Shown one piece after another: positions 5,654 through 45,783 of a DNA stretch of 64,000 bases. Both the position numbers and the translations under genes were made by a program. The DNA comes from Candidatus Poribacteria bacterium (GTDB lineage Bacteria; Poribacteria; WGA-4E; WGA-3G), in contig CAXXUA010000003.1 in assembly GCA_963663765.2 (NCBI GenBank), positions 46,042 to 110,041 of the forward strand, in the 5' to 3' direction. The notes beneath the pieces were generated by a model that was not told the origin of the DNA, ran no database searches, and was given only the letters and a program-made list of their open reading frames with translations. Positions within the stretch are counted from its first letter, which is position 1. Each line of letters begins with the position of its first letter.

Positions 5654-5659
5654 TATTGT

Positions 5660-25956: not shown

Positions 25957-26073
25957 AAACGTGTTATGTGAGATTCTATCGCGGAGTGTAAATATATTTT
26001 CGGATTCTACTATAATATCTTTCTCCAACGGTAGGCGTGCTTTGTAAGCGCGCTGGCACATCAAGTCCCCTCA

Positions 26074-26315
26074 GCGCGCTTACAAAGCACGCCTGCAGTT
26101 GGGGAGCGCGCTTACAAAGCACGCCTGCAGTTGGGGAGCGCGCTTACAAAGCACGCCTGCAGTTGGGGAGCGCGCTTACAAAACACGCCTGCAGTTGGGG
26201 AGCGCGCTTACAAAGCACGCCTGCAGTTGGGGAGCGCGCTTACAAAGCACGCCTGCAGTTGAGGAGCGCGCTTACAAAACACGCCTGCAGTTGGGGGGAG
26301 CGCTTACAAAGCACC
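26074..26315. repeat. 32-bp tandem array, ~7.5 copies (gcgcgcttacaaagcacgcctgcagttggggag)
   Basis: Unit starts at 26074, 26106, 26138, 26170 and onward. An inverted copy of the 21-bp core at 26031-26052 precedes the array. Confidence 0.9.
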
Positions 26316-26823
26316 AAATCAACGGTATGAATGCCATTTAGGCATTCCCCGCCTACCATCGGGGGCGCGCTTACAAAGCACCATAGGCGTTAATTTAAGA
26401 AAATATTGTTGTCATTTTTCTTGTGGGAGGGGTTTTCAACCCCGATTTGAGAGGAAAAGCGCATAAATTCGGGGTTGAAAACCCCTCCCACAAGAGGTCA
26501 AAATCCTTAAATTGACGCTTATGGGGTTGGGTAACCCAACCCCTACAAACGTGTTATGTGAGATTCTATCGTGGAGTGTAAATATATTTTCGGATTCTAC
26601 TATAATATCTTTCTCCAACGGTAGGCGTGCTTTGTAAGCGCGCTGGCACATCAAGTCCCCTCAGCGCGCTTACAAAGCACGCCTGCAGTTGGGGAGCGCG
26701 CTTACAAAACACGCCTACTATGGGGGAGCGCTTACAAAGCACCAAATCAACAGTATGAATGCCATTTAGGCATTCACCGCCTACCGTTGTGTGCGTAAGT
26801 CCTGCTTGGTTTCATTCAACTGA

Positions 26824-27980: not shown

Positions 27981-28300
27981 GAGATAATCCGCACCATCTT
28001 TATAATCCGACAGATCATGCAGAGTACTCGTCAATACCATACGCGTATTTAGCAGGTATTTCAAGTATACTGCAACGGGAGTTCAACATTGATTTGTTGG
28101 TAAGCCAAAATCTGATATTCTGACATAAGTGGTGTCCTGATCTCTGATTACACGGATTTTGTGGAATAGTCTTCTTATTTGCGGACGTTCCCATCCAGTG
28201 AAAAACACCTTGAAATATCAAACAAAAAATCTGTGCACTCCGCGTAATCCGCGATTCAGACAATTCCAGAAACTTTACCCACCCACACCAAAATCAATTG

Positions 28301-28329
28301 TTGACAGAATATGTGAATGAAAATATAAT
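28301..28329 (+). promoter_or_regulatory. perfect consensus sigma70 promoter TTGACA-17-TATAAT
   Basis: ttgaca at 28301-28306, a 17-nt spacer, tataat at 28324-28329. It lies ~65 nt upstream of the ATG at 28394, which has an aagga RBS. Confidence 0.7.
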
Positions 28330-28393
28330 TGTCATTGGAAGTGCCGTAATTAGTCCAACAAGCCACGACTTACTATATGTTCAAGGATTCCTT

Positions 28394-30925
28394 ATGTCAA
28401 ACAACTTTCTGTCAAAATTGTTCCTTATCACCATCATCTTCCTCATCACCATCACACACGCAACAGCACACCAAACTACCAACAACGACACAACCCACGC
28501 AACAGATTACTTCAACCACATCACCCTCTACGCCGATGGCAGAATCACACGTTTCACACAGATGCCAATTCAGGTTTACATCTCACCATCCATAAAAGAG
28601 AGTGCCTACCTACCAGAACTCCGATACGCAATGCAAGAATGGGAAACAGCATCTGATAATCTAATCAAATTCAAAGAAACCGATACACACGATAACGCAG
28701 ACATTCATGTCAATGCAGGTGAAAATAGCATGGCAACCTACTTTGATATGCGACTCGGAAGCGCAGAATTGACGCGCCATAGGGATAGCACACAAGTTGT
28801 ATTCTCACCCGAACCAACTGAAAACGAAGGAGATACACCAGCAGAATCTGATGGAGAGGAACAACCTTCAGACAACACAAATGCTATTGATTTTACCGTA
28901 GAGATTATTCTGATACCAGAAGGGGATGGTGCCGTTAGTGATGAATTGCAGAAAGAGATGCGGACGGTGTCTCTACATGAATTTGGACACGCACTCGGTT
29001 TATGGGGGCATAGTCCTTTCAAAGACGATGTTAACTACACAAAAGCAACTGCACAACAACCCTCCAAACGCGACGCAGACACGTTAATCAAACTCTATAA
29101 CACACCTTTGAATACATCTCAGCATGATGTCGCTATAAATCTGCTAAAAATGGAAATTGAAGCGAAACCGAACCATCCGCTTTACCATTACCGCCTTGGA
29201 GCAGTCTACTATGACAAAGGCAACATGGAATTAGCATTGCAAAGTATACAGGAATGTCTCAGACTTGACCCCAAATTTAACACAGCATCACAGAAACTCT
29301 TACAAATCTATGATAACACCGGGCAGCAAACACTCGCAATTGACCTGCTGGAGAAAAACCTTGACCAACCAGATAAAGAAAAAACCCAGCAAGAAACCTC
29401 TATAGCATATAACCATCTCGGTGTACTACACTATCAAAAAAACAACATAGATAAAGCAATCCAAGCATTTGAAAAGGCTTTAGAACTCTCACCTCACAAC
29501 AAAACCACAAAACGCAATCTGCATCAAATCTTTCTTGAAAGAACATTCAAATCCCTGAAAACAAAAGCCTATGAAACTGCTGAAACCTATGCCAAAAAAG
29601 CCATTGAACTTGAGCCGAAAGACACAACTGCCTATAAGTATTTAGGTTCCGGATATTCTCAATTAGGGAAGTATACAAAAGCGATTGAATACTACCAAAA
29701 AGCACTTAAGATTCAACCTACCGATCAGTTGACGCAGAAAAACCTCGCAAATAGTTATGTCGGATATGGCATAACATTGAAAGATCAGATGAAATGGGAT
29801 GAAGCTATCTCCGCCTACAAGCAAGCACTCAAAATAGAACCGACCCTCCAAGTTGCAACCACAAACTTGACTGATGCTTATTGGAAAAAGGCAAACGCAC
29901 ATCGTGCTTCGGGAAACATTGACCAAGCTATTGACGCTTACGACGAATTGAAAAAAATGCATCCCAATGAACCCGACCTATACAGCCTTCTCGGTGATTT
30001 ATACCTCAAAAAAAGGAAATTTCAATCCTCTTTATCTGCATTCCAAATGGCTTCTACCCTAAAACCTGATGATCCACAGGCACAGCAAAACGTCATCGCA
30101 GTATATCTACAATACGCACAGCACCTAATAAATATAAAAGACTATAATACCGGAATTGAAAAACTTGTTAATGGTGTTGAGGAATTTCCAGACGATCTAA
30201 AGTTGCGACTGATCCTATCACAAGCATATCAGAATACAAACAAATTTGATAAAGCAAAAACCGAATTGGAATATATACTGACGAAACAACCTGGACATCC
30301 ACAAGCAGAAGCTGCCCTGTTTAACATGCAGGTGCGACGTGGAAACGAACTCATGCAACAAAAGAAATACAGCGAATCTGTTGCAGCATTTGAAGGTATT
30401 CCAGAATCCAAAAAAACCACAGATATCCACAATATGATCGGCTATCTCTATATCATGAAGTCCGACCACTTGAAAGCGTTAGCAGCTTTTGAAACTACGC
30501 TTGCCAAAGAACCTCAAAACAATGTCGCCTATCAGAACTTGCAAGCACTTGAATCAAGATTTGTTGTTCAACTTGAAAAATTGTCACCGCCAAAGAAAGA
30601 ACTAACAGAAGGTGAAACAACGGCAAAAACTCAACCGAATGTAGCAAACAAACCTAAAATTGATGCGGTTAAGACAAAGTTGCTTCATATACAATGTTCA
30701 CTGTCAATCTGTCTACTCAATCGTGGAAACCCCAAAAACGCGTTAGCAAAATTCGAACAGGCATTGAAAAATAATCCTAATAAACCTGAACTACAGAAAC
30801 TCCTGATTGATACAGGTAGAAAACTTGCTAACATATACCAGTCGCGGAATGACATCCAAAAACGCGATAAAGTCAAACAATTAATTCAACCGTTAGAAAG
30901 CAGCTTTGATGAATTAAAGAAATAA
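28394..30925 (+). CDS. secreted metzincin-like zinc protease fused to a long TPR array
   Basis: Signal/TM segment MSNNFLSKLFLITIIFLITI. Zinc motif HEFGHALGLWGH (HExxHxxGxxH). More than 10 TPR-like repeats follow. The track start at 28298 lies inside the promoter. Confidence 0.8.
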   Translation: MSNNFLSKLFLITIIFLITITHATAHQTTNNDTTHATDYFNHITLYADGRITRFTQMPIQVYISPSIKESAYLPELRYAMQEWETASDNLIKFKETDTHDNADIHVNAGENSMATYFDMRLGSAELTRHRDSTQVVFSPEPTENEGDTPAESDGEEQPSDNTNAIDFTVEIILIPEGDGAVSDELQKEMRTVSLHEFGHALGLWGHSPFKDDVNYTKATAQQPSKRDADTLIKLYNTPLNTSQHDVAINLLKMEIEAKPNHPLYHYRLGAVYYDKGNMELALQSIQECLRLDPKFNTASQKLLQIYDNTGQQTLAIDLLEKNLDQPDKEKTQQETSIAYNHLGVLHYQKNNIDKAIQAFEKALELSPHNKTTKRNLHQIFLERTFKSLKTKAYETAETYAKKAIELEPKDTTAYKYLGSGYSQLGKYTKAIEYYQKALKIQPTDQLTQKNLANSYVGYGITLKDQMKWDEAISAYKQALKIEPTLQVATTNLTDAYWKKANAHRASGNIDQAIDAYDELKKMHPNEPDLYSLLGDLYLKKRKFQSSLSAFQMASTLKPDDPQAQQNVIAVYLQYAQHLINIKDYNTGIEKLVNGVEEFPDDLKLRLILSQAYQNTNKFDKAKTELEYILTKQPGHPQAEAALFNMQVRRGNELMQQKKYSESVAAFEGIPESKKTTDIHNMIGYLYIMKSDHLKALAAFETTLAKEPQNNVAYQNLQALESRFVVQLEKLSPPKKELTEGETTAKTQPNVANKPKIDAVKTKLLHIQCSLSICLLNRGNPKNALAKFEQALKNNPNKPELQKLLIDTGRKLANIYQSRNDIQKRDKVKQLIQPLESSFDELKK

Positions 30926-31770: not shown

Positions 31771-34700
31771 ATGCCGAATAACGAAAACGAACAACCCGTG
31801 AATACCCTAAGAAAACTATATATCATCACAATTCTCATCTTCTCCCATGTCTCAATTCAATCTGCCATCGCATTCCAACAGATGAAGTCATACACCGTAG
31901 CAGATGGACTATTAGATGCTGTCGTCCCCGTTATATTCCAGGATAGTCGTGGGATGCTCTGGTTCGGTTCTGAGCATGGCGGTGTGAGTCGTTTTGATGG
32001 GAAAACGATTGTTGCATTCGGTGCAACCTCACAGAACTTCTATGGCAGAACACAAAAGATCGTTGAAGATAGATGGGGACATATCTGGTTTCTAAGCAAA
32101 AACCCATCTCAAGAAACAGGAGTCATCATCAGATATAACGGGGATACATTTGAGCATTATGATAATGGCAACTGTCTTACTGTTGACACAGAAGGAAATA
32201 TTTGGGTCGGGAGTCAAAACAGCATCACCCGATTTACTGCAACAAGTAGTCAAGATATACCGAAAGGACTCCAACTTGACATCAGCAACACCTCTGATGC
32301 AAAGATAAACGCTATATTTCAAAGTCAAGATAGTACAATATGGGTCGGTGGAAATGACGCACAAGGAGTCTTTATCGTCTCTCTTCAAGGCAACATCATT
32401 GAGGGAAAAGCTGTAGACCTAAATCGGTTTGACAACATACCGACTCTTCCCAATGACCTTGCCGTTGATGCCATCACCCAGGATTCAGATGGACACCTCT
32501 GGTTTGCCGGAAAATCACTACTACTCCGTTTTGATGGTAACCAATTTGAACAGATTAGAGATACTCACGAAAACAAGAATGTCCAACAAGCACCTGATAA
32601 AATAGATAATGGTGCAGCATCCGTTAAAAGTGATAAACAAGGAAGGATATGGTATAGCGACAATAAAAAACTACGTTGGAGCGACGGTAAAAAACTCACC
32701 AGGTTAAAAAATCTCAGTCTGGAAGCAAATCAAGACCCCTATCTACAAGGCACTTTTGGCACTGAAGACGCAATGGGGAGACTTTGGTTTGCAAGCAACA
32801 TCGGCGTGCATCTATACGAAAACAACGATAATCCAAACGACGGTATAAACAATTCTCAATTAGAATCTCTCCTTACGGGTTCAACACAAGTAACACACAG
32901 AATATTTCAAGTCAATCATGGACTTGGTAGTAATAACATTTTCACTATCTTTGAAGCGATGGATGGAACACTCTGGTTTGGTCATGACAACGGAGTAACT
33001 GCATTGCAACCGCAACCAGCAATTGTGCAATACGGAACGCGTTCTATTTTAGGCAGCAGCAACGTTAAACTAATGTTTCCAGATAGCATTGGCACACTCT
33101 GGCTCAGCATTCCTGGTGGTATTGCCCGATATGTACCAAAAGACGATGAACTCTATAAATACCCGTTAGCAGAAATCGATTTTGCAGACAATAGACATAG
33201 AAGTACTCAGAGAACAAATAGACCTACAGAAATAGTTAAGATATGTGAGATAGATGGAGATATCTGGTTATTGGATAAACCAATTCAACACCAAGATGGA
33301 TTTTCTTTATACAGAATATTCCGCTATAGAAATGGCTCGTTTGAGGAACTTTCTATTCAAATCGCCGCTAACATCGATCTTGATGGACAACCCATTTTCA
33401 GCAACCCAGGTCCGTTTCTATCTTCAGGTGCAGAACCGTGGATAGCATTAAACGGATGGCTTTTCCTTCCAAGAAAAAACGGATTGTACCAAATCTTACC
33501 AGATGGAAACACAAAAAGATTGGTTTTTGAAACAAGAACTTCTTTACCATCCGCATCAGATACAATCTCATATATACATTCGGACAACCAAAACCGATTA
33601 TGGTGCTATTTTGAAAAAGGTGAAGTGAAACGGTATACAAATATCCGCAATAACAACACACAACCTATTGGCAGAATTCACGATGAAATCCTACGGATAG
33701 GTTCAGTTATTCCCATTCCAAACATACCTACAGACAACTCTATAAAGTGGTTGTACAATACCGAAAGTAAGAAACTAATATATTGGAAAAACCTTGATAT
33801 AACAAGACCAGCAATTGAACTACCAAATGCGTTTGTCGACCCGCCGTTATTGGCTGTGCAAACTGTTACTGTTTCCTCAGAACTTCAGCAGAAAAACAAT
33901 GAAAATAATCCAACGACTTTTGTTTTCCAAGATGGTATTAAGACTTATGACGGTATTACATTACTAAATGAAGTTTCCACTGAAATCGGTAAGCTCAACA
34001 GTTCACTCGTTGCAACTGATGGAATACTCTGGTTAGCCACATCCAAAGGCTCAATCCAATATAACGGAAAAGGGGTTACAACTTACACAAAAAATGATGG
34101 TTTCATTGTTGATGATTTGCGGGATGTAAAGGAAGATGACTGGGGTAATATCTGGTTCGCAACATTGGGTGGCGGTCTGATACGATACAATGGGGATACG
34201 TTTGAATCTATCACGACTAAAGACGGTCTTATTCATAACAACGTATCAAGTATTCATGTCTCAAATGAAGAAGACCTATGGTTTGGAACCGAAGGTGGAG
34301 CTACACAATATCGGGTCAGTCGTGGGGCACTTCCATTCTGTCGTATCATCTCTGTTCATACTGGAAAATCAAACACACAAACTATTAGGATGGAATCCCA
34401 TAAAACCACTGATATTACTGAACTTCTCCCAGCAGGACTCAACCATTTGACTGTCCGTTTTCAAGGGATCAACCCACTCGGAGGAGACGTAACCTACAAA
34501 TTTAGACTCATTGGCATAGACAACAACGAATGGACAACTGTTTCTCCTGACATCAAACAAGATATTTCTACATCATTTAAAGGTAGGGTTGTACAATATT
34601 ATCAACCACCAAAACATGAAACATCAAAAGGGTTACCACAAATTCGTTTTGAAGGTTTGAAATCAGGAAATTACGCTTTTCTAATTACAGCATATCGCGA

Positions 34701-35643
34701 AGGTTGGCAATATGCACAACAACCCGCAATATTGAACTTCACTATCGACAAACCAATCTGGACAAAATGGCGTTCTTATCTCCCCTATACCATCTTATTC
34801 ATAACAGTGGGTTCTTTGCTATTTAGACTCATCATCAACCGAAGACAAACAGCACGATTACGACTTGAAATGCGCGAAAAAGAAGAAACCGAAATGAAAC
34901 GTATCCGAGATGAACTGAGCGAAGCACAAAATATACAGATGGGACTATTACCGACTGAAGTACCACATTCACAAGTATTTGACTTCGCAGGAAAATCCAT
35001 ACCAGCAACACAAGTCGGGGGAGACTTCTACGATTACTTGACTGTCGCAAACGGACATACGGCTATCGCTGTAGCAGACGCAGCGGGAAAAGGCATTAGG
35101 GGTGCAATGAGTGCTGTACTCACAAATGGAATGCTGTATGAAGTCGTACGCATCAAAACGGAAGCACATCACATACTGCAGGAACTCAATGATGGAATAG
35201 CTCCACGTATACACGGACGCAATTTTATTGCACTAAACTTGGCAATACTCAACGAAACAGAAAAAACAGTTAACTACGCAAATGGCGGGCAACCTTATCC
35301 TATTCTCAAAAGAGGAACAAACATTACTGAAATTGATTGCAGCGATCTACCTCTTGGCAGTATGAAAAATGTTGAATATGATTCTGTAACTTTTGATTTA
35401 GAGGAAGGTGATTTTCTTATATTACATTCGGATGGTGTGATTGAAGCACTCAATTCTGACCAAGAAATGTACGGTGTAGAACGGCTATTAGAACTAACTT
35501 CACGCATCCCTAACGAATGCAGTGCTGAAGAAGTGTTACAACGTATCGTAGATGATGTCCGAGTCTTTGTTCAGAACGCAGAACAATACGATGATTTAAC
35601 ACTTGTCGTTGTAAAATGTACGGAACCTATGCACCAACGGTAG
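31771..35643 (+). CDS. membrane sensor: periplasmic beta-propeller/Y_Y_Y region + TM + cytoplasmic PP2C (SpoIIE-type) phosphatase
   Basis: 1290 aa. Repeated G.LWFGT..GG propeller blades, a TM segment YLPYTILFITVGSLLF, a coiled coil, then the SpoIIE motifs GGDFYDY and ADAAGKGIRGA. Confidence 0.75.
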   Translation: MPNNENEQPVNTLRKLYIITILIFSHVSIQSAIAFQQMKSYTVADGLLDAVVPVIFQDSRGMLWFGSEHGGVSRFDGKTIVAFGATSQNFYGRTQKIVEDRWGHIWFLSKNPSQETGVIIRYNGDTFEHYDNGNCLTVDTEGNIWVGSQNSITRFTATSSQDIPKGLQLDISNTSDAKINAIFQSQDSTIWVGGNDAQGVFIVSLQGNIIEGKAVDLNRFDNIPTLPNDLAVDAITQDSDGHLWFAGKSLLLRFDGNQFEQIRDTHENKNVQQAPDKIDNGAASVKSDKQGRIWYSDNKKLRWSDGKKLTRLKNLSLEANQDPYLQGTFGTEDAMGRLWFASNIGVHLYENNDNPNDGINNSQLESLLTGSTQVTHRIFQVNHGLGSNNIFTIFEAMDGTLWFGHDNGVTALQPQPAIVQYGTRSILGSSNVKLMFPDSIGTLWLSIPGGIARYVPKDDELYKYPLAEIDFADNRHRSTQRTNRPTEIVKICEIDGDIWLLDKPIQHQDGFSLYRIFRYRNGSFEELSIQIAANIDLDGQPIFSNPGPFLSSGAEPWIALNGWLFLPRKNGLYQILPDGNTKRLVFETRTSLPSASDTISYIHSDNQNRLWCYFEKGEVKRYTNIRNNNTQPIGRIHDEILRIGSVIPIPNIPTDNSIKWLYNTESKKLIYWKNLDITRPAIELPNAFVDPPLLAVQTVTVSSELQQKNNENNPTTFVFQDGIKTYDGITLLNEVSTEIGKLNSSLVATDGILWLATSKGSIQYNGKGVTTYTKNDGFIVDDLRDVKEDDWGNIWFATLGGGLIRYNGDTFESITTKDGLIHNNVSSIHVSNEEDLWFGTEGGATQYRVSRGALPFCRIISVHTGKSNTQTIRMESHKTTDITELLPAGLNHLTVRFQGINPLGGDVTYKFRLIGIDNNEWTTVSPDIKQDISTSFKGRVVQYYQPPKHETSKGLPQIRFEGLKSGNYAFLITAYREGWQYAQQPAILNFTIDKPIWTKWRSYLPYTILFITVGSLLFRLIINRRQTARLRLEMREKEETEMKRIRDELSEAQNIQMGLLPTEVPHSQVFDFAGKSIPATQVGGDFYDYLTVANGHTAIAVADAAGKGIRGAMSAVLTNGMLYEVVRIKTEAHHILQELNDGIAPRIHGRNFIALNLAILNETEKTVNYANGGQPYPILKRGTNITEIDCSDLPLGSMKNVEYDSVTFDLEEGDFLILHSDGVIEALNSDQEMYGVERLLELTSRIPNECSAEEVLQRIVDDVRVFVQNAEQYDDLTLVVVKCTEPMHQR

Positions 35644-35750
35644 GCGGGGAATGCCTACAGAAGCATGCGCGTGTGGCATGCTCCATGATTCATACCGTTG
35701 ATTTCTTGATTTGGCGCTGGTATATCAAGTACAACAGTTCTCCCCCGCTG

Positions 35751-36127
35751 GTATGCGTGCTTTGTAAGCGCGCCCCCCTACTGCCCCCCACGCAGGCGTG
35801 CTTTGTAAGCGCGCCGATTTTTTGGCAAGCGTTCTCCCAAACTGTAGGCGTGCTTTGTAAGCGTGCTCCGTTCTCCCAAAAACTGTAGGCGTGCTTTGTA
35901 AGCGCGCCGATTTTTTGGCAGGCGTGCTTTGCGAGCGTGCTCCCAAACTGCAGGCGTGCTTTGTAAGCGCGCTCCGTCTCCCAAAAACTGCAGGCGTGCT
36001 TTGTAAGCGTGCTCCGTTCTCCCAAACTGTAGGCGTGCTTTGTAAGCGTGCTCCGTTCTCCCAAAAACTGCAGGCGTGCTTGTAAGCGCGCCGATTTTTT
36101 TTTTGGCAAGCGTTCTCCCAAACTGCA
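35751..36127. repeat. array of 9 copies of the 21-bp hairpin core ggcgtgctttgtaagcgcgcc (variable 33-48-bp spacing)
   Basis: Cores near 35755, 35794, 35838, 35886, 35920, 35951, 35993, 36038 and 36071. The array is interrupted at 36127/36128 by a MITE. Confidence 0.9.
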
Positions 36128-36555
36128 CAGGGTTATTCAGTTTTCAATATTTTTGATAATATTTTACTATGTCGTTGATTTTATGTGTTGCCATCTTGTC
36201 CATGTCTTTAGTCCCGTAGGGACGATATGTTTATAGAAACATGTTATCTATCCCTCTTGAGTTCCGTAGGAACGACATAGAAGAATAAACATATCGTCCC
36301 TACCAAATCAACGCCAAATGCGCGTGTGGCATTTGGCGGGACTAAAGAGCTGGGGCGTGTATTCGTTTTCTATAAACATATCGTCCCTACCAAATCAACG
36401 CCAAATGCGCGTGTGGCATTTGGCGGGACTAAAGACCGATGTTCAGGTTTCAATAATCTAAAATTGATGTATAAGGTGCAGTTAGGAAACTGCATTTGGG
36501 TATTAACTTTCAGTAAATCAAAATAACAGAAAACTTTTAAAACTGAATAACCCTG
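36128..36555. mobile_element. MITE family B, complete copy with perfect 9-bp target-site duplication
   Basis: TIRs cagggttattcagtttt / aaaactgaataaccctg. The 9-mer caaactgca is present at 36119-36127 and again at 36556-36564. The flanks join to restore the host array unit. Confidence 0.85.
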
Positions 36556-37360
36556 CAAACTGCAGGCGTGCTTTGTAAGCGCGCCGATTTTTTTGCAAGC
36601 GTTCTCCCAAACTGTAGGCGTGCTTTGTAAGCGCGCCGATTTTATGGTAGGCGTTCTCCCAAACTGTAGGCGTGCTTTGTAAGCGCGCCGATTTTATGGT
36701 AGGCGTTCTCCCAAACTGTAGGCGTGCTTTGTAAGCGCGCCGATTTTATGGTAGGCGCGCTTACAAAGCACGCCTGCAGGGGAATGGGGGGATGGCGCGC
36801 TTACAAAGCACGCCTGCAGGGGAATGGGGGGATGGCGCGCTTACAAAGCATGCCTGCAGGGGAGGGCGGGGATGGCGCGCTTACAAAGCACGCCTGCAGG
36901 GGAGGGCGGGGATGGCGCGCTTACAAAGCACGCCTGCAGGGGAGGGCGGGGATGGCGCGCTTACAAAGCACGCCTGCAGGGGAGGGCGGGGATGGCGCGC
37001 TTACAAAGCACGCCTGCAGGGGAGGGCGGGGATGGCGCGCTTACAAAGCACGCCTGCAAAAGGGATAAGAGGGGCGCGCTTGAAAAGCACGCCTGCAGTT
37101 ATAGGGGCAGTTGAGGGGCGCGCTTGAAAAGCACGCCTGCAGTTATAGGGGCAGTTGGGGGGCGCGCTTACAAAGCACGCCTGCAGTTATAGGGGGCAGT
37201 TGGGGGGCGCGCGGACAAAGCACGCCTGCAGTGGGGGGCGGGGATGGCGCGCTTACAAAGCACGCCTGCAGTTGGGGGTGCAGGTGGGGGGCGCGCTTAC
37301 AAAGCACGCCTGCAGGGGAGGGCAGGTGGGGGGCGCGCGGACAAAGCACGCATACCAGGG
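36556..37360. repeat. continuation of the core array (4 copies), then orientation flip at ~36752 into ~15 inverted-orientation copies (8 at an exact 40-bp period)
   Basis: ggcgcgcttacaaagcacgcctgcagg occurs at 36755, 36795, ... 37035 (40-bp period). Further copies at 38-46-bp spacing run to ~37355. The spacers are G-rich. Confidence 0.9.
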
Positions 37361-37460
37361 TGAGTTAAATAGAAATACCGATTCTATTTATTAATCTTCA
37401 TATAGCATTCACACCGTTGATTCGGTGAGATCCTGGTTCAGACAAGGAAGACATGACGAT

Positions 37461-38300
37461 TTACTCTAATTCCGAGCAAATTTCCCCAACCAATTGGGCA
37501 TTTTCACCAATCTGGTCACCAAATTGCTGATACATCCCAAGCAACAGAACATCATTCGGTTTGGTGTTCTCTATAGCAAATTTCAACTCCTCTCGGATCT
37601 GTTGTTTGCTGCCAATAACCCTGCCCGCAGCAAGCACTTTGAATATGATACAAGGTTTATCTGTACGTTGGATCGCCTTGCACATCTCAATGCGATCCTC
37701 ACGCGCATAGATTTCACCCAAAGGAGCATAACCGAACTTCTCTCTAAACTTCTCACTACCACCTCGTAGGTTATAGAGTGCTGTCATATAATAGTCTATA
37801 TCCCAATTTTCATCTTCAGCAATATGCAATAGTTTCGGGTCATGCACCGATAAACCCACAAGCGTACCAGTGTCGCGAATCCGCTTCAGGAGATCCTGCA
37901 AGAAATCAAGTCTGTTTTCACGTAGACAACGTTGCCCAACACCACCTCCGTGGGGTGCCATCCCCAACGGGTTATGCTTTGCGTCTTCAAAAACATGGTC
38001 AGGTTCATCATACCATACATAGCCTTGACTCAGACAGAACCAATGAACCTTGCCACCTTGATCACGGTATAACTTCAGGTCAGAAAGTGAACGTTCAGTC
38101 GCAGTATTCTGCCAACCATTTATACCAACTTCCTCTGCTCTATTAATTGTTGCTACGACCCTTTCAGGTGTATGATACTCTTTCTGATGTTGCGAAAGCA
38201 GTTGATTGAAGTGGGAATATCCGTATATCGGATTATCCCCTATCAACAACTTGCTGATCTGATGATTGCAAAATGATACTTTCGGCAGGTTAGTTTCCAC
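37461..38300 (-). CDS. hypothetical protein
   Basis: 279-aa ORF with normal composition. I recognise no motif. Confidence 0.5.
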   Translation of the reverse strand: METNLPKVSFCNHQISKLLIGDNPIYGYSHFNQLLSQHQKEYHTPERVVATINRAEEVGINGWQNTATERSLSDLKLYRDQGGKVHWFCLSQGYVWYDEPDHVFEDAKHNPLGMAPHGGGVGQRCLRENRLDFLQDLLKRIRDTGTLVGLSVHDPKLLHIAEDENWDIDYYMTALYNLRGGSEKFREKFGYAPLGEIYAREDRIEMCKAIQRTDKPCIIFKVLAAGRVIGSKQQIREELKFAIENTKPNDVLLLGMYQQFGDQIGENAQLVGEICSELE

Positions 38301-40299: not shown

Positions 40300-42056
40300 T
40301 TGAATACTTATTTCGAAAATAAAAAAGGTTACTTATTCATTTTTTTATCGCTATTGATGATACTTGGCGGACAAGCTACAAGCGTTTCGGATGTAGTAAC
40401 TGCTGTTAGTGAACGGACATCACAAGTGCGTGATGTTATCGTATCCGCTGCAGGTGTAAACGCCGCAACAGACGTAACCGACACCGATTTAGCAGAAATA
40501 AACAGTCTTGACCTTAGAATCGAAGGCATCACTCAACTGAAATCAGGCGATTTCTCAGGCTTAACAGGACTAACGAATCTGAACCTATACGGTAATCAAC
40601 TCAGCAGTCTACCTGAAGGGGTTTTTGACAATCTAAGCAGCCTATCTGAACTAAATCTGAGTAAGAATGAATTTGCTTCCTTACCCTCAAATCTATTCCG
40701 TAATCTCAAAGGATTAGATGTCCTTGACCTGAATTACAATGAATTTACCACGTTACCTTTGGGTTTTTTTAATGGTCTCAGTATTGTCATCAAAATTAAG
40801 TTGAATGGAAACAACATTAGTTCTTTACCACTTGGCATAAATGACAATCTTCCCACTTTGGAGGAACTCCAATTGGCTGGGAATAGTCTAAGTTCATTAC
40901 CTGTTGATATATTTGACGAACTTTCATCACTCTTAACTCTTAATCTGATTGGAAACAAATTCACTGAATTGCCAAGTGGAATATTTGATGCCTTGTCATC
41001 TCTGGGGGACTTCATATAGAAAATAACAGTTTAACATCTTTACCATCTGGTATCTTTGATGGACTGACTTCTATAAGATGGATATACGCTCATCATAATC
41101 AGTTGAGTTCATTGCCATCTGGTCTATTTGACAATAATTCAACTCTGGTGACGCTAAAATTAAACGAGAATCAGTTGAGTTCATTACCGTCAGGTATTTT
41201 TGACAATTTGAGAACACTGAAATGGCTACATTTATATAAGAATCAGTTGAGTTCATTGCAATCAGGTATGTTTAGCGATCTTGTGAAACTGCAAGAGTTA
41301 AAACTATATAATAATCAGTTAAGTTCGTTGCCAGACGGTATATTTGAAAACCTCAGTTTCCTAGTAGAACTTCTGTTGGGGAACAACGCTGTTGATCCCT
41401 TGCCTATTGTAGTGTCATTAGAGAAAGTTGAGGAAGGACAATTCAAGGTAGTTGTTCATACAGGCGCACCATTTTATATGAATATACCAATCAGTATCAA
41501 TAACGGAAGCACTAACGATGGAAAAACCAACTTAAGTGTAGAAATACATAAAGGCAAAATCACAAGTCGCACTGTCAATGTAGTACGAACAGAGGGAACA
41601 ACGGAAGCGGTCACAGTAAATATCGGTAATCTACCATCTATACCTGCAAATTATATTCATTATGGATATGCCCTTATAACATCTGCTGATCTACCGTTAG
41701 AAATCATACCTGCAATATCGGGTGCACCTACCAAAGTTACTAATGTAGCCTTGACTATTCCTAATAATAACGCACTTTTATCCAACTATCCAAACCCGTT
41801 CAATCCTGAAACATGGCTACCGTATCAGTTATCAACAGCATCGGATGTTACAATAACAATTTACAATATGAGAGGTGTTGTTGTGCGACGGTTGATGTTA
41901 GGACATCAGAAGGCAGGTTTCTACACAAGTCGTCCCCGTGCTGCACATTGGGATGGTCGGAATGCTATCGGTGAAAAGGTTGCGACAGGTGTGTATTTCT
42001 ACACATTCAAAGCGGGTGATTGGACTGCTACGCGCAAGATGTTGATACGGAAGTAA
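40300..42056 (+). pseudogene. LRR protein with T9SS-type C-terminal sorting domain, split by a 1-nt frameshift at a G5 run (may be an assembly error)
   Basis: Track ORFs 40300..41019 and 41103..42056 are one gene. Adding one G at 41004-41008 gives ...DALSSLGGLHIENNSLTSLPSGIFDGL... The C-terminus NYPNPFNPETW...GVYFYTFKAGDWTATRKMLIRK is a Por/FlgD-Ig-like tail. Confidence 0.7.
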
Positions 42057-42272: not shown

Positions 42273-43286
42273 AACGTGAGTTCGGATATAAAGTCCGAGT
42301 TTGTGGTATTTAGAGAACCCTTTTGATATAATGAAATCATTATCCAATACAAAAGGAGTTCTCTGATGTTTATCATATCACTTTTCTGTAATATTGACGA
42401 CTTTTTTAATGTCTATAAAAAATATAAAGCATCTCAACAACTGCCAGCGGATCGCCCCTTTGAAATGCGAGGCCGTCCACGCACTCTACATCCCAGTGAG
42501 GTGATGACGATCCTTATCCTTTTTCATCAAAGCGATTATCAAACCTTAAAAGCTTATTATGAAAAACACGCCCGGCACTACTTGCGGTGGGCATTTCCGA
42601 ACTTAGTGAGTTATAACCGCTTTGTGGAACTTCAACAAGAAGTCCTTGAACCTTTGTCTATATATCTTTACACATGCTTTGGCATCTGTGATGGTATTTC
42701 CTTCGTAGATTCTACGCCAATGCCAGTTTGCCACAATCGCGGAATCCCAACACATAAAGTCTTTGTTGAACAGGCATCCCTTAGCAAGAACACTGTCGGT
42801 TGGTTCTACGGGTTCAAACTTCATCTGTGTGTTAACACTTCTGGCGAACTTTTAGGTGTTGAGTTCACACCTGCTACAACAGATGACCGGAAAGTTGTTC
42901 CGAAGTTGGGAACCCACTTATATGGCAAACTCTATGCGGATAAAGGCTATATCTCACAAATCCTGCGTGAATACTTGCAAACCCAAGGTATTGAGTTGGT
43001 ATATAAGGTTCGCAAGAACATGAAGCCGCAACCTTTATCAGACTTTGATGAGCTCTTGCTGAAAAAACGGATCCTGATTGAATCGGTTATCAAAGAAATA
43101 AAAACGCAGACACAACTTCAACATACGCGGCATAGAAGTTTTATCAATTTCCAAGTGAACATGGTGGCTGCTTTAATTGCTTATACCTACTTGGAGAAGA
43201 AACCCTCGTTGAACTTGCCGGAATGCAAACGGGTACCGACAGCAACGCTTTCTTTAGAACCCTAAATCTTTTTCCGAACTCACGTT
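42273..43286 (+). mobile_element. IS982-family insertion sequence
   Basis: Perfect 14-bp terminal inverted repeats aacgtgagttcgga (42273-42286) and tccgaactcacgtt (43273-43286) bracket a single transposase ORF. Total length 1014 bp. Confidence 0.8.
42366..43265 (+). CDS. IS982 family DDE transposase
   Basis: N-terminus LFCNIDDFF is characteristic of IS982. The DDE context is FVDSTPMPVC, LYADKGYIS, LIESVIKEIK. Confidence 0.8.
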   Translation: MFIISLFCNIDDFFNVYKKYKASQQLPADRPFEMRGRPRTLHPSEVMTILILFHQSDYQTLKAYYEKHARHYLRWAFPNLVSYNRFVELQQEVLEPLSIYLYTCFGICDGISFVDSTPMPVCHNRGIPTHKVFVEQASLSKNTVGWFYGFKLHLCVNTSGELLGVEFTPATTDDRKVVPKLGTHLYGKLYADKGYISQILREYLQTQGIELVYKVRKNMKPQPLSDFDELLLKKRILIESVIKEIKTQTQLQHTRHRSFINFQVNMVAALIAYTYLEKKPSLNLPECKRVPTATLSLEP

Positions 43287-43295
43287 TTCAATAGG

Positions 43296-44234
43296 TTATT
43301 TGTCCCGTTTTTCTTTATACTTCGCTATTGCTCCGCGTTCCGCCAGTTCGGATTTTGCGTAATATGCTGGCATCTCTGAACTTTTCCACCTGCCAGCAAT
43401 TTGCATCTCAACAACGGAAGCACCGGCTTGTGCCAAAGCGACCGCAGAACCCACACGCAACGAATGCCCAGCAATGAAACCATCAACACCGGCATCAGAT
43501 GCACGCTTCTGTATGATTCGCCTTGCAGAGAAATCTGTCAACCTTTCCGATTGGATGTGATCACCCCGGCGTATCCTACGAAACAAAGCACCCGATGTTA
43601 TGTCCGCACGTTTTTGATACCTTTTCATAATGTCCTGTGTTTCATTTGTCACATAAAGCGCGGTTGATGCACCTTCTTGATCTGTCTTGGATGTCCGAAC
43701 TATCAAGGCTTGTTTTTCAAAATCCGATACATCTACCACGACAACTTCTGAAACACGTAGCAAACAATCAGACATCAGACGGATCATTGCACTATCACGT
43801 AAGCCTGCGATCGTGTTTTCAGATTCAGCGAAAGCACAGACCCTTTCCGTTTGTTGCCAATCAAGTCCTGTGACTTGTCCACGTCCGCGATTTTTTCCTT
43901 CGCGCCGAATGCCTGCTAATGTCCGAGTGGTGACCGGTAAATCATAATTCTTGCTTTCATTCCGCAGTTGCCAACGCGCCGCAGCCACCACAATAGATAT
44001 TGACGAAGGCGCGCGTCCTTGTCCATACAAATCTGTAATATAAGCAGCTAAAGCACCATCAGAAATCTCTAAGTTATGATCCGAGAGGTACGTCTGAATC
44101 CCCGCCAAAGCATGCCGATATGCTTTCAATGTGTTCGGCGCGATACTTGCCCTGATTAGATTTTCAGTCTCTTGTCTGAGTGTGATGTTGGCACTTGTGT
44201 CTTTATCTGATTGGACGATGCTTGTGTTATTCAT
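43296..44234 (-). CDS. tyrosine site-specific recombinase, Cre-like
   Basis: C-terminal catalytic region GHSLRVGSAVALAQAGASVVEMQIAGRWKSSEMPAYYAK (HxxR ... W ... Y) closely parallels the Cre GHSARVGAARDMARAGVS..GGW..Y block. An upstream Arg lies in LLRVSEV. Confidence 0.8.
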   Translation of the reverse strand: MNNTSIVQSDKDTSANITLRQETENLIRASIAPNTLKAYRHALAGIQTYLSDHNLEISDGALAAYITDLYGQGRAPSSISIVVAAARWQLRNESKNYDLPVTTRTLAGIRREGKNRGRGQVTGLDWQQTERVCAFAESENTIAGLRDSAMIRLMSDCLLRVSEVVVVDVSDFEKQALIVRTSKTDQEGASTALYVTNETQDIMKRYQKRADITSGALFRRIRRGDHIQSERLTDFSARRIIQKRASDAGVDGFIAGHSLRVGSAVALAQAGASVVEMQIAGRWKSSEMPAYYAKSELAERGAIAKYKEKRDK

Positions 44235-44532
44235 TGAGTTTTCTACTTATGCGTTTGTATAATTCTTCGCTTGGATTGAGTTTATATTTCCCCCATCCCG
44301 TCTTTTCTAACTCTTGATATTTTTCATATAGATATTCTCTCACATATTTGTTTATAGAGTTCTGTAATTCCAACGGATAGACATTCCCCCATAATTGTGA
44401 CATTTCTTCCTCACTGATATAAGGTATCAGTTCTACCGATTGAAATTCTTTTGTGAGTTGGTAATTGTTAACAATGAACATTCTGCTGATAAGTTCCCTT
44501 ACATGCTCCTCATGTTTGTCTTTATTTAACAT
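44227..44532 (-). CDS. hypothetical acidic protein translationally coupled to the recombinase
   Basis: 101-aa ORF. Its stop overlaps the recombinase start by 8 nt (ATGAATAA). Confidence 0.5.
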   Translation of the reverse strand: MLNKDKHEEHVRELISRMFIVNNYQLTKEFQSVELIPYISEEEMSQLWGNVYPLELQNSINKYVREYLYEKYQELEKTGWGKYKLNPSEELYKRISRKLNE

Positions 44533-44652
44533 TGAAATCCCTTTTCCTTTTATTTATTGAATTTAATATTTAACATCATATAACTGGACTTATCTGATGT
44601 TATTATAAACGCGAGAATAAACAATGTCAACACTATTACATCACTTATTTCA

Positions 44653-44681
44653 TTGAAAAATATATCGCATTATGATATAAT
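44653..44681 (+). promoter_or_regulatory. near-consensus sigma70 promoter TTGAAA-17-TATAAT
   Basis: ttgaaa at 44653-44658, a 17-nt spacer, tataat at 44676-44681. It is divergent from the 101-aa ORF/recombinase operon. Confidence 0.6.
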
Positions 44682-44718
44682 CTAAATATGTCTAAGATTC
44701 CATACTGGAGACGATACC

Positions 44719-44898
44719 GTGAGAGAAAGACATACCCAACAAAAAACTATGTATGAAAAAATTGGGAAAGCAGCTAACGAATTTGAGGTCTCATTTGCGG
44801 AGGTTGTTTGCGAATGTATTGATCGAGAACTGGACAGACTTATTGACAGAGAAAAAAAGAGAATACAATCTCAACAGAATCTGTCTGAACATAGATAA
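44719..44898 (+). CDS. small ribbon-helix-helix-like protein (59 aa; below the ORF-track cutoff)
   Basis: GTG start 7 nt after a ggaga RBS. Translation (M)RERHTQQKTMYEKIGKAANEFEVSFAEVVCECIDRELDRLIDREKKRIQSQQNLSEHR shows a strand-helix-helix pattern like CopG/Arc-type regulators. Confidence 0.5.
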   Translation: MRERHTQQKTMYEKIGKAANEFEVSFAEVVCECIDRELDRLIDREKKRIQSQQNLSEHR

Positions 44899-44973
44899 AT
44901 ACTAATTCCATAAGTTCTGAAAAATCGCAGAAAAAATGAGGTGATTCTCATCAGGATATATAACGGCAATAAT

Positions 44974-45783
44974 TTATGATAATTGATGAATTAGAGTTGC
45001 TAAATCATGAATTGCCCTTCCATATATTGTAACTTGAGAACCTACTGCAACATGAGAATCTATTGAACTTCTAAGTATTGACAAGGTTGGACCACCGTGG
45101 AAACGCAGTTTTGCTTCTCTATAATGTGTTTTAGAATCATTTCTGATTTCAAATTCGCTCATATTTTTATTATTATACCGAAGAACAACCTTTAGATCAT
45201 CCATCTGATTCATATTTCGCGCCTTAGAGTTTTTTATCTGCAGTTTAGGGGATAGAACTCGAACAACGTCTTCAGCCGAAAAGATATGATAATGTTTTTC
45301 ATCAATAGGAGTTTCTTTACCAGATTGCTCTACAGGTAAAATTGCAAGGTATTTTACCTCAAGACCATTAAAAAATGCCTTTGACAAAAACATCGGGAAA
45401 ATGCCTGGCTTATGTAATTCATCTTTTAGCTGACGCATAATAGGTTGAAGACGCTTTTTCGCTACTTGTTTGTCCGCTTCATAATCCTTAAATTCTTCTG
45501 GGAACGCATCAATGCAATCAATCATCAAGTTCGCAATACTGCCTATATCATGGAATTCCGTATTATTTACAAGCCGGTCTCGTGAATACAAGAATACTTG
45601 CCAATACTTGTTCCCTTTTACTGAATAACTCCTACCGTCACTATCCAATACATCCGTTTTTTTTGTCCTACCCCCAACAACCTTTCCATCTATAAGATCA
45701 GAAAATATCTTTTCATTTTTATGACCTTGTTTTTTTTTGCCGGATGCTGCTTCTGAAGTCATAGCACGTCTTTTTTTAGCCAT
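44974..45783 (-). CDS. putative type II restriction endonuclease (unclassified)
   Basis: 269 aa. Its start overlaps the methyltransferase stop by 1 nt (TAATG). It has a possible PD..(S/E)xK-like motif TDVLDSDGRSYSVKG. I see no similarity to enzymes I can recall. Confidence 0.5.
   Translation of the reverse strand: MAKKRRAMTSEAASGKKKQGHKNEKIFSDLIDGKVVGGRTKKTDVLDSDGRSYSVKGNKYWQVFLYSRDRLVNNTEFHDIGSIANLMIDCIDAFPEEFKDYEADKQVAKKRLQPIMRQLKDELHKPGIFPMFLSKAFFNGLEVKYLAILPVEQSGKETPIDEKHYHIFSAEDVVRVLSPKLQIKNSKARNMNQMDDLKVVLRYNNKNMSEFEIRNDSKTHYREAKLRFHGGPTLSILRSSIDSHVAVGSQVTIYGRAIHDLATLIHQLS

Follow-up and report, generated by a model that had tools for sequence, protein, structure and literature searches.

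The locus studied here lies in a stretch of DNA of 64 kb from Candidatus Poribacteria, which is called the window below. Two convergent genes, a SpoIIE/Reg_prop sensor gene (31771-35643, + strand) on the left and ORF279 (37461-38300, - strand), coding for a conserved Poribacteria hypothetical protein, on the right, flank a 1.6-kb block (35748-37358) that contains 28 copies of GGCGTGCTTTGTAAGCGCGCC, 13 on the + strand followed by 15 on the - strand. Searched as exact sequences, the two proteins that flank the block in the window returned no record. The original prediction had placed the block between the 3' ends of these convergent genes and had announced about 28 cores, 13 one way and 15 the opposite way, and both statements were confirmed, the counts being exactly 13 (+) and 15 (-) once the degenerate copies at 35921 and 36072 had been recovered by an indel-tolerant scan. 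With up to three mismatches allowed, the core matched 39 times in the window, where shuffled sequences predict 0.00 matches, and 26 of the 39 fall inside 35754-37352. The features of the block are the following (the term REP for its units is justified later in the text):

35634-35720, + strand: another dispersed element, CAACGGTAGGCGGGGAATGCC...ATTCATACCGTTGATTTCTTGATTTGG, which caps the array on the SpoIIE side
35748-36127, + strand: outer part of the left arm, 9 REP units head-to-tail, with spacers of 11-35 nt, several of which have GATTTTTT tails
within 35748-36127, + strand: outermost unit of the left arm, with the variant tag CTGGTAT-GCGTGC
36128-36555, no strand: MITE-like insertion of 428 bp, outside the REP family, which interrupts the left arm
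36556-36741, + strand: inner part of the left arm, 4 REP units at a 52-bp period, with 96% unit identity
36717-36778, no strand: flip point, two inverted REPs with GTAG/GCAG tags outward and the 12-nt spacer GATTTTATGGTA at 36742-36753
36754-37358, - strand: right arm, 15 REP units in direct order, eight of them at an exact 40-bp period
within 36754-37358, - strand: outermost unit of the right arm, again with the tag CTGGTAT-GCGTGC
35748-35789 paired with 37317-37358, no strand: outer inverted repeat of the block, 42 nt, 88% complementary

The orientation switch, predicted at ~36752, is located in the 12-nt gap between the last + copy, which ends at 36741, and the first - copy, which begins at 36754. 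The eight copies expected at an exact 40-bp period were found at 36754-37034, six of them with identical spacers, and the other right-arm copies follow at 39-45 bp. Not only the cores but whole units with their spacers are 96-100% identical at the 40-bp, 52-bp and 32-bp periods, as well as at a two-unit period of 79 bp. In each unit of the inner left arm, GATTTT(T/A)T follows the hairpin, and a second, truncated tag, GGTAGGCGTTCTCC, comes after it. The right-arm spacers have a - strand rich in C and a + strand rich in G; a G-quadruplex array was considered for them and discarded, the canonical G3+N1-7 x4 motif occurring on neither strand. At the gathering threshold, Rfam gave zero matches in the whole window, and a permissive scan of 35500-37500 returned only miRNA/sRNA hairpin models of at most 25 bits, far below threshold.

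The + arm is interrupted: the MITE-like insert, which the original prediction had missed, splits it into 9 and 4 units. This insert is bounded by perfect 17-bp terminal inverted repeats, CAGGGTTATTCAGTTTT (36128-36144 and 36539-36555), and flanked by a 9-bp direct duplication, CAAACTGCA (36119-36127 and 36556-36564), and its interior is made of other repeat families that are present too at 12.1-12.5 kb and 61.5-61.8 kb. The duplication restores a regular array unit, which suggests that the array is older than the insertion. As for the 'mega-palindrome' of the original prediction, the two opposed arrays are there but their symmetry had been overstated. The arms measure 564 and 611 nt and are only 65.5% identical in a global alignment, mostly through their cores, which indicates two arrays grown independently rather than a mirror copy. 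A near-perfect palindrome is limited to the central dimer at 36717-36778.

The unit itself differs from the 21-bp core first proposed, with its 7-bp stem and 7-nt loop. The predicted fold has a G+C-rich stem of 9 bp and a loop of 3 nt (z-score of -3.4 to -4.1), and the core is preceded by a conserved 5' G-[T/C]-A tag, which makes the unit 25 nt long. This tag is mostly unpaired and present at one end only, and reads GTAG or, in arrays, GCAG or GTAT. Directly 5' of the stem, G[T/C]A[G/T] was found in 104 of 116 oriented copies (GTAG 65, GCAG 27, GTAT/GCAT 8). Among 81 distinct units, the G and A columns of the tag are conserved at 90% or more and the T column at 70% or more, and the would-be 3' partners of the tag are not conserved and pair with it in only 37-69% of the units.

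The nine stem pairs, for their part, are formed in 84-98% of these 81 units. Two of them covary: pair 15/23 is CG in 65 units, GC in 11 and UG in 3, and pair 13/25 is UG in 51, CG in 27, AU in 1 and GC in 1. The covariation score is 0.187, compared with 0.137 in shuffles (none of 500 reaches 0.187) and at most 0.109 in slid controls. The strand asymmetry noticed at the outset was upheld: on the tagged strand, the T at position 5 forms a G.T wobble, which becomes a C.A clash on the complement. In silico folding of each strand, one of the checks proposed with it, agrees, the hairpin having -14.9 (RNA) and -9.4 (DNA) kcal/mol on the tagged strand versus -11.4 and -6.7 on the complement, i.e. an advantage of 2.7-3.5 kcal/mol. 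Overall, the tagged strand carries 144 G.T wobbles against 9 A.C clashes, an excess that tallies copies and not independent events, and master copies are the probable source of the T residues at positions 5 and 21.

As a rival explanation, given that assembly is error-prone in tandem and inverted repeats, we weighed the possibility that the inverted arrays are a technical artefact, either a fold-back or chimeric long-read palindrome or the expansion or collapse of a simple repeat during assembly. In 91%-identical relatives the orthologous gap is 28 bp long and devoid of REPs, and in a 93% relative it is ~150 bp long and also REP-free; in 85-87% relatives the orthologous gaps are non-syntenic on the SpoIIE side and contain no REP either. 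A contig (L037) of a 99%-identical strain, whose source is the sponge Petrosia ficiformis, was obtained from an independent Illumina metagenome; it has the same right junction with different spacers and covers at least five array units before it breaks off at an adapter. Each of its array units begins with T instead of G, as expected under concerted evolution. Taken together, the REP-free gap in the 91-93% relatives and the shared junction with different spacers indicate that the array is real, recent and fast-changing, so that the outcome of the artefact test set by the original prediction favours a genuine structure. The arms, moreover, are not mirror images and have T-rich versus C-rich spacers, one of them carries an insertion with a clean target duplication, and the same architecture is found twice more at 26 kb. 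The exact flip junction had no match among JGI metagenome contigs, a collection without such contigs, and direct REP pairs likewise gave zero matches in the metagenome scan; these nulls are uninformative, since the latter pattern is present in L037 itself. We thus regard an artefact as highly unlikely, although the exact unit counts of the array could be slightly wrong.

The block is not singular but one cluster of a repeat family that is dispersed and conserved in Poribacteria, which accounts for 39 core copies at five loci in the window alone, including the following:

11870-11895, + strand: singleton REP with the full head, CAACGGTAG-GCATGCTTTGTAAGCGCGCC
26034-26384, no strand: second locus, one + unit, an 18-nt spacer, 7 - units (32-bp period, 96% identity) and a degenerate - unit at 26364
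26624-26742, no strand: third locus, one + unit, an 18-nt spacer and then 2-3 - units

The third locus (26624-26742) lies within a duplication of the second of ~590 bp. Each array locus of the window has one tags-outward junction (26034/26073, 26624/26663 and 36721/36754, with spacers of 12 and 18 nt), and the singleton REPs share the 12-nt head CAACGGTAGGCG with the element at 35634-35720. Beyond the window, an exact 19-mer of the core was found at at least 30 loci in 19 species-level assemblies. Eighteen of these are labelled Poribacteria, and the nineteenth, an 'uncultured bacterium', has an orthologous locus in common with Poribacteria assemblies. Carriers of the core include the complete Poribacteria chromosomes OY282386, OX638351 and OZ240244. 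All 30 Poribacteria core loci examined are intergenic, and in other Poribacteria species the tagged hairpin is mostly a singleton. At one orthologous site with conserved flanks, a REP is kept in five species, which fits long-term vertical persistence. Two hairpin subtypes alternate in opposite orientation in MAG AGPOR5, body to body and with gaps of 10-12 nt (alternating A/B clusters occur at L021, L022, L027 and L030), and some of the B-type copies have a tag that pairs with CTAC. Where neighbouring genes run in the same direction, the REPs in the gap between them are in sense orientation in 12 cases, at a median of ~49 bp from the upstream stop codon, and antisense in 5, a bias that is not significant (one-sided binomial ~0.07) and rests on crude longest-ORF gene calls. 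A match in a viral contig (L039) was set aside as a chance hit in untagged, G+C-rich coding sequence, and a match in Hyphomicrobiales (L010) is likewise genic and without the tag.

These features match those of the known superfamily of GTAG-tagged REPs (REP/BIME/REPIN), which includes the SMAGs of S. maltophilia, Pseudomonas GTAG-1 and enterobacterial GTAG-3 (Di Nocera, De Gregorio & Rocco 2013, PMC3733652). As in the Poribacteria unit, the members described are palindromes of 20-40 bp with a stem of 6-13 bp, a loop of 2-3 nt, frequent G.T stem pairs and an unpaired GTAG at one end, sometimes degenerate to GYAG. They are extragenic, mostly between unidirectional or convergent ORFs and near the upstream stop codon, and they form tags-outward dimers, 'HH' in the nomenclature of Di Nocera (PMC3733652), as well as clusters of tandem units reiterated with flanking DNA, both of which are seen in the window. 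The Poribacteria family thus shows the short palindrome, the one-end tag, the dispersed and extragenic location, the HH dimers and clusters, and the compensatory or G.T variation of the stem, GCGTGCTT-TGT-AAGCGCGC being likened to the class, which has 24 published consensus sequences, by its described features. Poribacteria are not mentioned in the main text of that study, and in the searchable literature we found no report tying them to REPs, RAYTs or REPINs.

In several respects the block departs from the known arrangements. Its homotypic head-to-tail arrays of 13 and 15 units correspond to an arrangement called absent or under-represented in PMC3733652, and long direct arrays of one type are therefore atypical for the GTAG class. 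REPs clustered in intergenic gaps are also known from the BIMEs of E. coli and relatives, but these alternate in orientation at regular spacing and usually combine two types, whereas the block has one unit type in direct orientation and a single flip. The BIME layout is found in MAG AGPOR5, which implies that the family is able to form BIME-like clusters. The REPINs associated with RAYTs (Bertels & Rainey 2011, PMC3116915, PMC3337134) are inverted REP pairs with a short spacer, the pair being what replicates, and the window has three doublets of that form; amplification in the window is however local and in tandem rather than by dispersed doublets, and the copies of other species are mostly singletons. 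Thermomicrobium roseum GTAG-23 and Thauera GTAG-1 (PMC3733652) offer a parallel, with REPs in large blocks or arrays at few loci flanking genes, as here, although their sequence and phylum are other than those of the Poribacteria family.

Short palindromic repeats in one direction within each arm and at a regular spacing of 32-52 bp might also recall a degenerate or orphan CRISPR-like array, or an array of integron attC sites. We find this extremely improbable. The spacers, just 11-35 nt long, are repeated too, with 96-100% identity over whole periods, and other genomes have the unit mostly as dispersed singletons; on these two grounds the candidate was rejected. Moreover, cas and integron-integrase domains are absent from the 20 window ORFs scanned, and the sole tyrosine recombinase lies 6 kb away and is unrelated.

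We consider it quite probable that the block is a large two-armed tandem cluster of Poribacteria-wide GTAG-tagged REPs, with an origin in dimer amplification and an action on single strands. This confidence covers the class together with a putative origin and a putative action, the latter deduced from the orientation of the units and from proposals made for REPs. As to the origin, the most likely course is that of a dimer between convergent genes, each partner of which was amplified in tandem. The starting state would have been a tags-outward inverted REP dimer between the SpoIIE-sensor gene and ORF279. Local tandem duplication, by slipped-strand mispairing or unequal recombination, may then have amplified each partner with its adjacent spacer, giving two opposed head-to-tail arrays that would evolve in concert with quick turnover, and at a later step the MITE would have landed in one arm.

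On a different account, a single mobile element, composite and non-autonomous, would make up all of the 1.6-kb block; it would have the 42-nt outer inverted repeat (CTGGTATGCGTGC...) at its ends and would have been inserted as a unit, with the arrays as cargo. The outer units do differ from the inner ones in their GTAT tag and form the 88% inverted repeat, and the block is missing in the 91-93% relatives and flanked by two copies of another module that is single in the 93% relative; duplicated composite units bounded by inverted CAACGGTAGGCG heads are also seen at the 26-kb loci. However, the block ends without a target-site duplication, the CTGGTATGCGTGC end has no second copy elsewhere in the window, and the sub-blocks of identical units, together with the strain differences in L037, show that most of the length arose in place. 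This account therefore seems improbable to us, although it is compatible with our explanation of how the seed dimer arrived and differs from it only in the amount that arrived at once.

A RAYT-type tyrosine transposase (Y1, HUH) is a candidate for spreading the family; in a REPtron its gene lies in the same genome, flanked by the cognate REPs. We looked for such a gene in three ways. The Pfam scan of 20 window ORFs and 10 REP-adjacent ORFs contained no RAYT/Y1 transposase, tblastn with E. coli RayT detected none in 378 kb, and a scan for the HUH...YxxxNP motif recovered only the E. coli control. These searches sampled less than 10% of one genome equivalent, a tiny part of genomes of 4-7 Mb and too small a sample to speak for an absence; REPtrons can, besides, be absent from REP-bearing species. 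The TnpB of the window (IS605 OrfB, 48584-49804) was rejected as a link to Y1 transposition, being a split solo copy without TnpA and without REP-like ends.

With regard to function, the units are oriented as the original prediction would have it: on either side, the strand read into the convergent transcript would be the tagged one, which folds better. Under the preferred reading, in which the units act on single strands, as suggested by this orientation and by general proposals on REPs, each transcript would enter its arm with the tagged strand as sense and acquire a series of stable 3' stem-loops. The bidirectional terminators of the original prediction fit one side only. Seven + strand units of the left arm match the terminator consensus, a hairpin followed by GATTTTTT or GATTTTAT, and the region contains 14 terminator-like sites versus 4.1 +/- 2.1 in shuffles. 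No right-arm unit has a T/U tract, and in that arm the transcript strand of the spacers is rich in C. On the SpoIIE side, the seven hairpins with U-tracts should thus serve as intrinsic terminators, while on the ORF279 side the hairpins and C-rich spacers would block 3' exonucleases and perhaps be Rho entry sites. For both arms these functional steps are throughout what we infer from sequence. The seven left-arm units resemble Rho-independent terminators in their G+C-rich 9-bp hairpin, T-run and position on the sense strand of the upstream gene, but they are repeated many times, and most dispersed members of the family have no T-run.

The arrays could, alternatively, act at the DNA level, either as an element that binds proteins or affects topology, in the manner of BIMEs to which gyrase or IHF binds, or as a palindrome that pauses replication or recombination. 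REP dimers are able to stall replication through large hairpins or cruciforms (PMC3733652), and the inner arms fold very stably as single strands (z = -15 to -21). However, pairing is preserved on one strand, with G.T and not A.C mismatches, which argues for selection on a single strand and not on duplex DNA. In addition, complementarity between the arms is confined to the cores of 21-26 bp and does not extend to the spacers, so that the cruciform extrusion put forward originally is unlikely in a 600-bp form. An action at the DNA level consequently appears rather unlikely; it would leave an RNA role possible, and recognition of single-stranded DNA by a RAYT would be strand-specific too.

A last reading, which is doubtful, sees in the long head-to-tail arrays a device specific to Poribacteria, or the outcome of a new copying mode, instead of products of passive slippage. 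One candidate version is a bank of RNA hairpins on the sense strand, whose spacers are rich in U on one side and in C on the other, that would insulate each convergent gene from the transcription of its neighbour. The other candidate is tandem copying by a putative partner protein reading the extended 12-nt head, CAACGGTAGGCG, which occurs in no fewer than two different hairpin elements and is conserved in at least 19 species. Should complete Poribacteria genomes truly lack RAYT, this second version would represent a RAYT-independent system maintaining GTAG-type REPs.

With the reading that we prefer, that of a two-armed cluster of GTAG-tagged REPs, current concepts are left unchanged: the array is a well-characterised example of a known intergenic repeat in an unusually large two-armed arrangement. 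It brings Candidatus Poribacteria, an uncultivated phylum of sponge symbionts, into the GTAG-tagged REP class, and the 19-mer core, preserved in many species-level genomes, has an unusually wide distribution for one REP sequence. The locus offers a clean natural case in which to ask if REP hairpins between convergent genes terminate transcription or affect RNA stability, and if tandem amplification depends on a RAYT. Such arrays also break short-read assemblies, L037 stopping inside the array, and, as they differ between 99%-identical strains, they could serve as markers of symbiont strains. As a minor observation, the array creates spurious ORFs of 60-143 aa across the block.

The two-armed block at 35748-37358 is genuine and was accurately described in the original prediction. 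Allowing up to three mismatches, GGCGTGCTTTGTAAGCGCGCC matches 39 sites across the window, where 100 shuffles gave 0.00, and 26 of these lie within 35754-37352, 11 on the plus strand followed by 15 on the minus strand. Two degenerate plus-strand copies, at 35921 and 36072, were added by an indel-tolerant scan, giving totals of exactly 13 (+) and 15 (-). The orientation flips between the end of a plus copy at 36741 and the start of a minus copy at 36754; in the right arm, eight minus copies (36754-37034) stand at an exact 40-bp spacing, the others at 39-45 bp. The numbers of opposed copies, the flip, the run of eight and the flanking genes are thus all as first read. The same core also occurs elsewhere in the window, and the left arm is interrupted by an insert:

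31771-35643, plus strand: SpoIIE/Reg_prop/Y_Y_Y sensor phosphatase, 1290 aa, left flank of the block
37461-38300, minus strand: ORF279, conserved, 279 aa, no Pfam domain, right flank, followed by an M42 peptidase
11875: singleton with the same core
26034-26384: smaller array with the same core
26624-26742: smaller array with the same core
36128-36555: MITE-like insert of 428 bp with perfect 17-bp terminal inverted repeats CAGGGTTATTCAGTTTT, splitting the left (+) arm
36119-36127 and 36556-36564: 9-bp target-site duplication CAAACTGCA flanking the insert

Taking out the 428-bp insert restores a regular array unit, indicating that the MITE-like element landed in a pre-existing array. Its interior belongs to other repeat families, with further members at 12.1-12.5 and 61.5-61.8 kb.

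The unit is predicted to form a 9-bp stem (GGCGTGCTT/AAGCGCGCC) with a 3-nt loop, and not the 7-bp stem with a 7-nt loop initially proposed. Alignment of the copies showed that the conserved unit runs 5' beyond the 21-bp core by G-T-A, which creates a GTAG-type tag before the stem. In 116 oriented copies, this tag is GTAG in 65, GCAG in 27 (all in the window arrays) and GTAT or GCAT in 8. When 81 distinct units were aligned, the G and A of the tag were conserved in at least 90% and the T in at least 70%; the 3' columns opposite the tag are not conserved and are paired in only 37-69% of the units, and the nine stem pairs are paired in 84-98%. Pair 15/23 alternates between C-G (65) and G-C (11), while pair 13/25 is found as U.G (51), C-G (27), A-U (1) and G-C (1). 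The covariation score was 0.187 versus 0.137 in shuffles, none of 500 reaching the observed value, and slid partners scored at most 0.109. The hairpin is kept by selection in this repeat family. Moreover, the strand-asymmetric mismatch noticed at stem position 5 (G.T versus C.A) is real, since in silico folding of both strands favours the tagged strand, with -14.9 kcal/mol against -11.4 for the complement as RNA, and -9.4 against -6.7 as DNA. The tagged strand carries 144 G.T wobbles versus 9 A.C clashes, an asymmetry that is suggestive of stem variation keeping pairing preferentially on this strand and is not proof, because copies rather than independent mutations are counted.

Without the insert, the arms measure 564 and 611 nt and share only 65.5% identity, mostly from the cores. 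The spacers differ too: those of the left arm are rich in T or belong to the CTCCCAAACTG type, those of the right arm are rich in C when read on the tagged strand. Only the outermost units are alike between arms, as a 42-nt inverted repeat (88%) with the variant tag CTGGTAT on both. The proposed 'mega-palindrome' consequently stands as two opposed arms of one core, but only its outermost units mirror each other, which argues for two independently grown arrays and against a mirrored duplication. Within each arm, runs of units are identical including their spacers, with periods of 40, 52 and 44 bp and a two-unit period of 79 bp; such runs are the mark of duplication in tandem at the site, not of a 25-nt element inserting time and again.

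The GTAG-tagged REP superfamily (Di Nocera et al. 2013; PMC3733652) groups 20-40-bp palindromes in which the stem measures 6-13 bp (6-9 in most cases), the loop is often 2-3 nt long and G.T pairs are frequent; the terminal GTAG is unpaired and, in some families, degenerate to GYAG. Such REPs lie mainly between unidirectional and convergent ORFs, near the upstream stop codon, and their preferred form is a dimer with the tags outside ('HH') (PMC3733652). The stem, loop, tag, G.T pairs and dimers of the Poribacterial unit match these properties. Judged by its sequence features, the block is a cluster of GTAG-tagged REPs, a known kind of element, in a phylum without prior description of it: the literature searched held no report tying Poribacteria to REP, RAYT (REP-associated tyrosine transposase), REPIN or MITE elements. 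Rfam gave no family match at gathering or permissive thresholds. Two arms built of long head-to-tail runs of one unit type are an unusual arrangement. What remains novel is how widely the 12-nt head CAACGGTAGGCG is conserved, how the arrays grow in tandem and which enzyme is the partner.

Scanning one genome per species for the exact 19-mer core gave at least 31 loci. Thirty of them are in 19 assemblies, 18 labelled Candidatus Poribacteria; the 19th, an 'uncultured bacterium', has an orthologous locus in common with Poribacteria assemblies. The 31st locus (Hyphomicrobiales) and a single viral-contig match are untagged and inside G+C-rich coding sequence, and were taken as chance. In most species, REPs are scattered as single copies, each in unique flanking sequence. 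By crude longest-ORF gene calls, all 30 Poribacteria loci fall between genes. The census counted 17 gaps between unidirectional genes, 3 between convergent and 3 between divergent ones, plus the window's two convergent gaps. REPs in unidirectional gaps are sense in 12 cases and antisense in 5, which is not significant, and the upstream stop codon is a median of ~49 bp away from sense REPs. This census agrees with the published pattern of gap types and stop-codon distance. Five species keep one REP at the orthologous position within an operon, its flanks being conserved too, and the genes adjoining REPs are ordinary (ogt, nuoC, ABC and other transporters).

In the MAG AGPOR5, subtypes A (GCG[T/C]GCTT...AAGCGCGC) and B (GCGCGGTT...AACCGCGC) strictly alternate in opposite orientation with body-to-body gaps of 10-12 nt, a BIME/REPIN layout under the definitions of BIME in PMC2817692 and of REPIN in PMC3337134. 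Tags-outward dimers as in AGPOR5 occur at the window's flip (12-nt gap) and at both 26-kb junctions (18-nt gaps); unusually, each partner in the window is multiplied head to tail. At positions 5596-7500 of the AGPOR5 sequence (L021, PYJE01000008.1), an alternating A/B cluster follows each of two tandem ogt (O6-methylguanine-DNA methyltransferase) genes, gene and cluster forming a ~1085-bp unit duplicated whole.

ORF279 has 1420 homologues at E<=1e-10; among the best 120, identities are 65-99% and the few with a named source are all Poribacteria. The gene is always downstream of an M42 aminopeptidase. The order M42 peptidase, ORF279 and convergent SpoIIE sensor is kept in relatives with 91-93% identical ORF279, and their orthologous gaps (28 bp in L034-L036, ~150 bp in the 93% relative L032) contain no REP, that of L032 carrying a different small module. 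In the 85-87% relatives the downstream neighbours differ, and no REP lies within 8-9 kb. An independent Illumina contig of 2.5 kb (L037, ORF279 99% identical), which comes from a sponge metagenome at JGI, has the same right-hand junction as the window (…AACTCACCCTGGTATGCGTGCTTTGTCCGCGCGCC) and at least five further units before ending inside the array at adapter sequence, so the assembly artefact envisaged in the original prediction is not borne out. The L037 spacers are unlike those of the window and all its units start with T, not G, details to be read with caution as repeat assembly from short reads is error-prone; such differences would fit tandem arrays homogenising within a lineage. Together, the junction, the REP-free relatives and the differing spacers indicate that the array is real, confined to a strain-level lineage and fast-changing.

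RAYTs are the defining partners of mobilised REPs. None was found by a Pfam search of 20 window ORFs and 10 REP-adjacent ORFs or by tblastn with E. coli RayT against 378 kb, and a catalytic-motif scan recovered only the E. coli control; this sample (30 ORFs, 378 kb) is far too small to conclude absence. REPtrons (a RAYT gene with flanking REPs) can be absent from REP-bearing species (PMC3733652). A TnpB (OrfB_IS605 plus Cas12f1-like TNB domain) at 48584-49804 (-) is split by a stop codon into ORFs of 75 and 315 aa, with no Y1 TnpA beside it. It is probably a decaying solo IS605-family element, and we rejected this split copy, unrelated to REPs, as their partner.

Each arm is oriented, at 26 kb as in the block, so that the gene reading into it has the tagged strand as its sense strand. 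In seven left-arm units read on the SpoIIE sense strand, GATTTTTT or GATTTTAT follows a G+C-rich hairpin (by consensus match only); the region holds 14 terminator-like sites, while shuffles gave 4.1 +/- 2.1. T-tracts follow none of the REP units in the right arm. The suggested bidirectional terminators thus find a counterpart in the left arm but not in the right. The SpoIIE transcript would be terminated by the first of the hairpin and T-tract units, whereas the ORF279 transcript would gain stable 3' stem-loops that hinder 3' exonucleases, and its C-rich (43% C), G-poor spacers could serve as Rho entry sites. Copies past the first few probably add little, and are more likely products of slippage or unequal recombination tolerated between convergent 3' ends. 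A less likely alternative is that the block acts as DNA, by binding proteins or because its central dimer extrudes as a hairpin or cruciform; single strands across the inner arms do fold very stably (z = -15 to -21), but this is expected of any inverted repeat.

Other repeats and two further genes lie in the window:

23290-23340(-), 26310-26357(-), 26740-26785(-), 35634-35720(+) and 12395-12450: second dispersed palindromic element, CAACGGTAGGCGGGGAATGCC-TAAAT-GGCATTCATACCGTTGATTT
12144-12359, 36205-36440 and 61476-61759: family of GT(C/T)CCGTAGG(G/A)ACGATATGTTTATAGAAA hairpins
4237-4838, 19439-20384, 41097-41331, 60654-60778 and 62238-62675: periodic repeats of 66, 72 and 132 bp inside ORFs
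28298-30925: TPR protein
9738-11090: sulfatase

Singleton REPs and the second palindromic element have the head CAACGGTAGGCG in common, and at three loci this element caps REP arrays; the array-free L032 has one copy of it in the gap between ORF279 and the SpoIIE sensor. GGTAGGCG occurs 9 times in the window versus 0.68 expected. The GT(C/T)CCGTAGG(G/A)ACGATATGTTTATAGAAA family forms tandem arrays (49-bp x4.4 and 53-bp x5.4, 97-99% identity). Long tandem repeats fill 1.5 kb at 57507-58995 (periods 203, 236 and 439 bp, 91-99% identity) with the hairpin GGAGCGATCTCCGAATCGCGAC...GGGAATCGGAGTTCCCTCC, and a similar motif is located just downstream of ORF279 in the relative L040. The repeat 'GGGGTTGAAAACCCCTCCCACAAGAGGTGAAAA' (37-bp x2.1) and an inverted partner, at 25760-25930 and 26390-26500, belong to a ~590-bp segment that is duplicated along with the 26-kb REP arrays and adjoins an IS630-type transposase (26831-28018, -). 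A likely mobile or defence islet at 42366-46703 contains a DDE_Tnp_1 transposase, a tyrosine recombinase, an unannotated 269-aa ORF and a D12-class N6-adenine DNA methyltransferase. Finally, the ORFs hosting the repeats at 41097-41331 and 60654-60778 have leucine-rich-repeat Pfam matches; in-ORF periodic and leucine-rich repeats, the TPR protein and the sulfatase are gene content typical of sponge symbionts.
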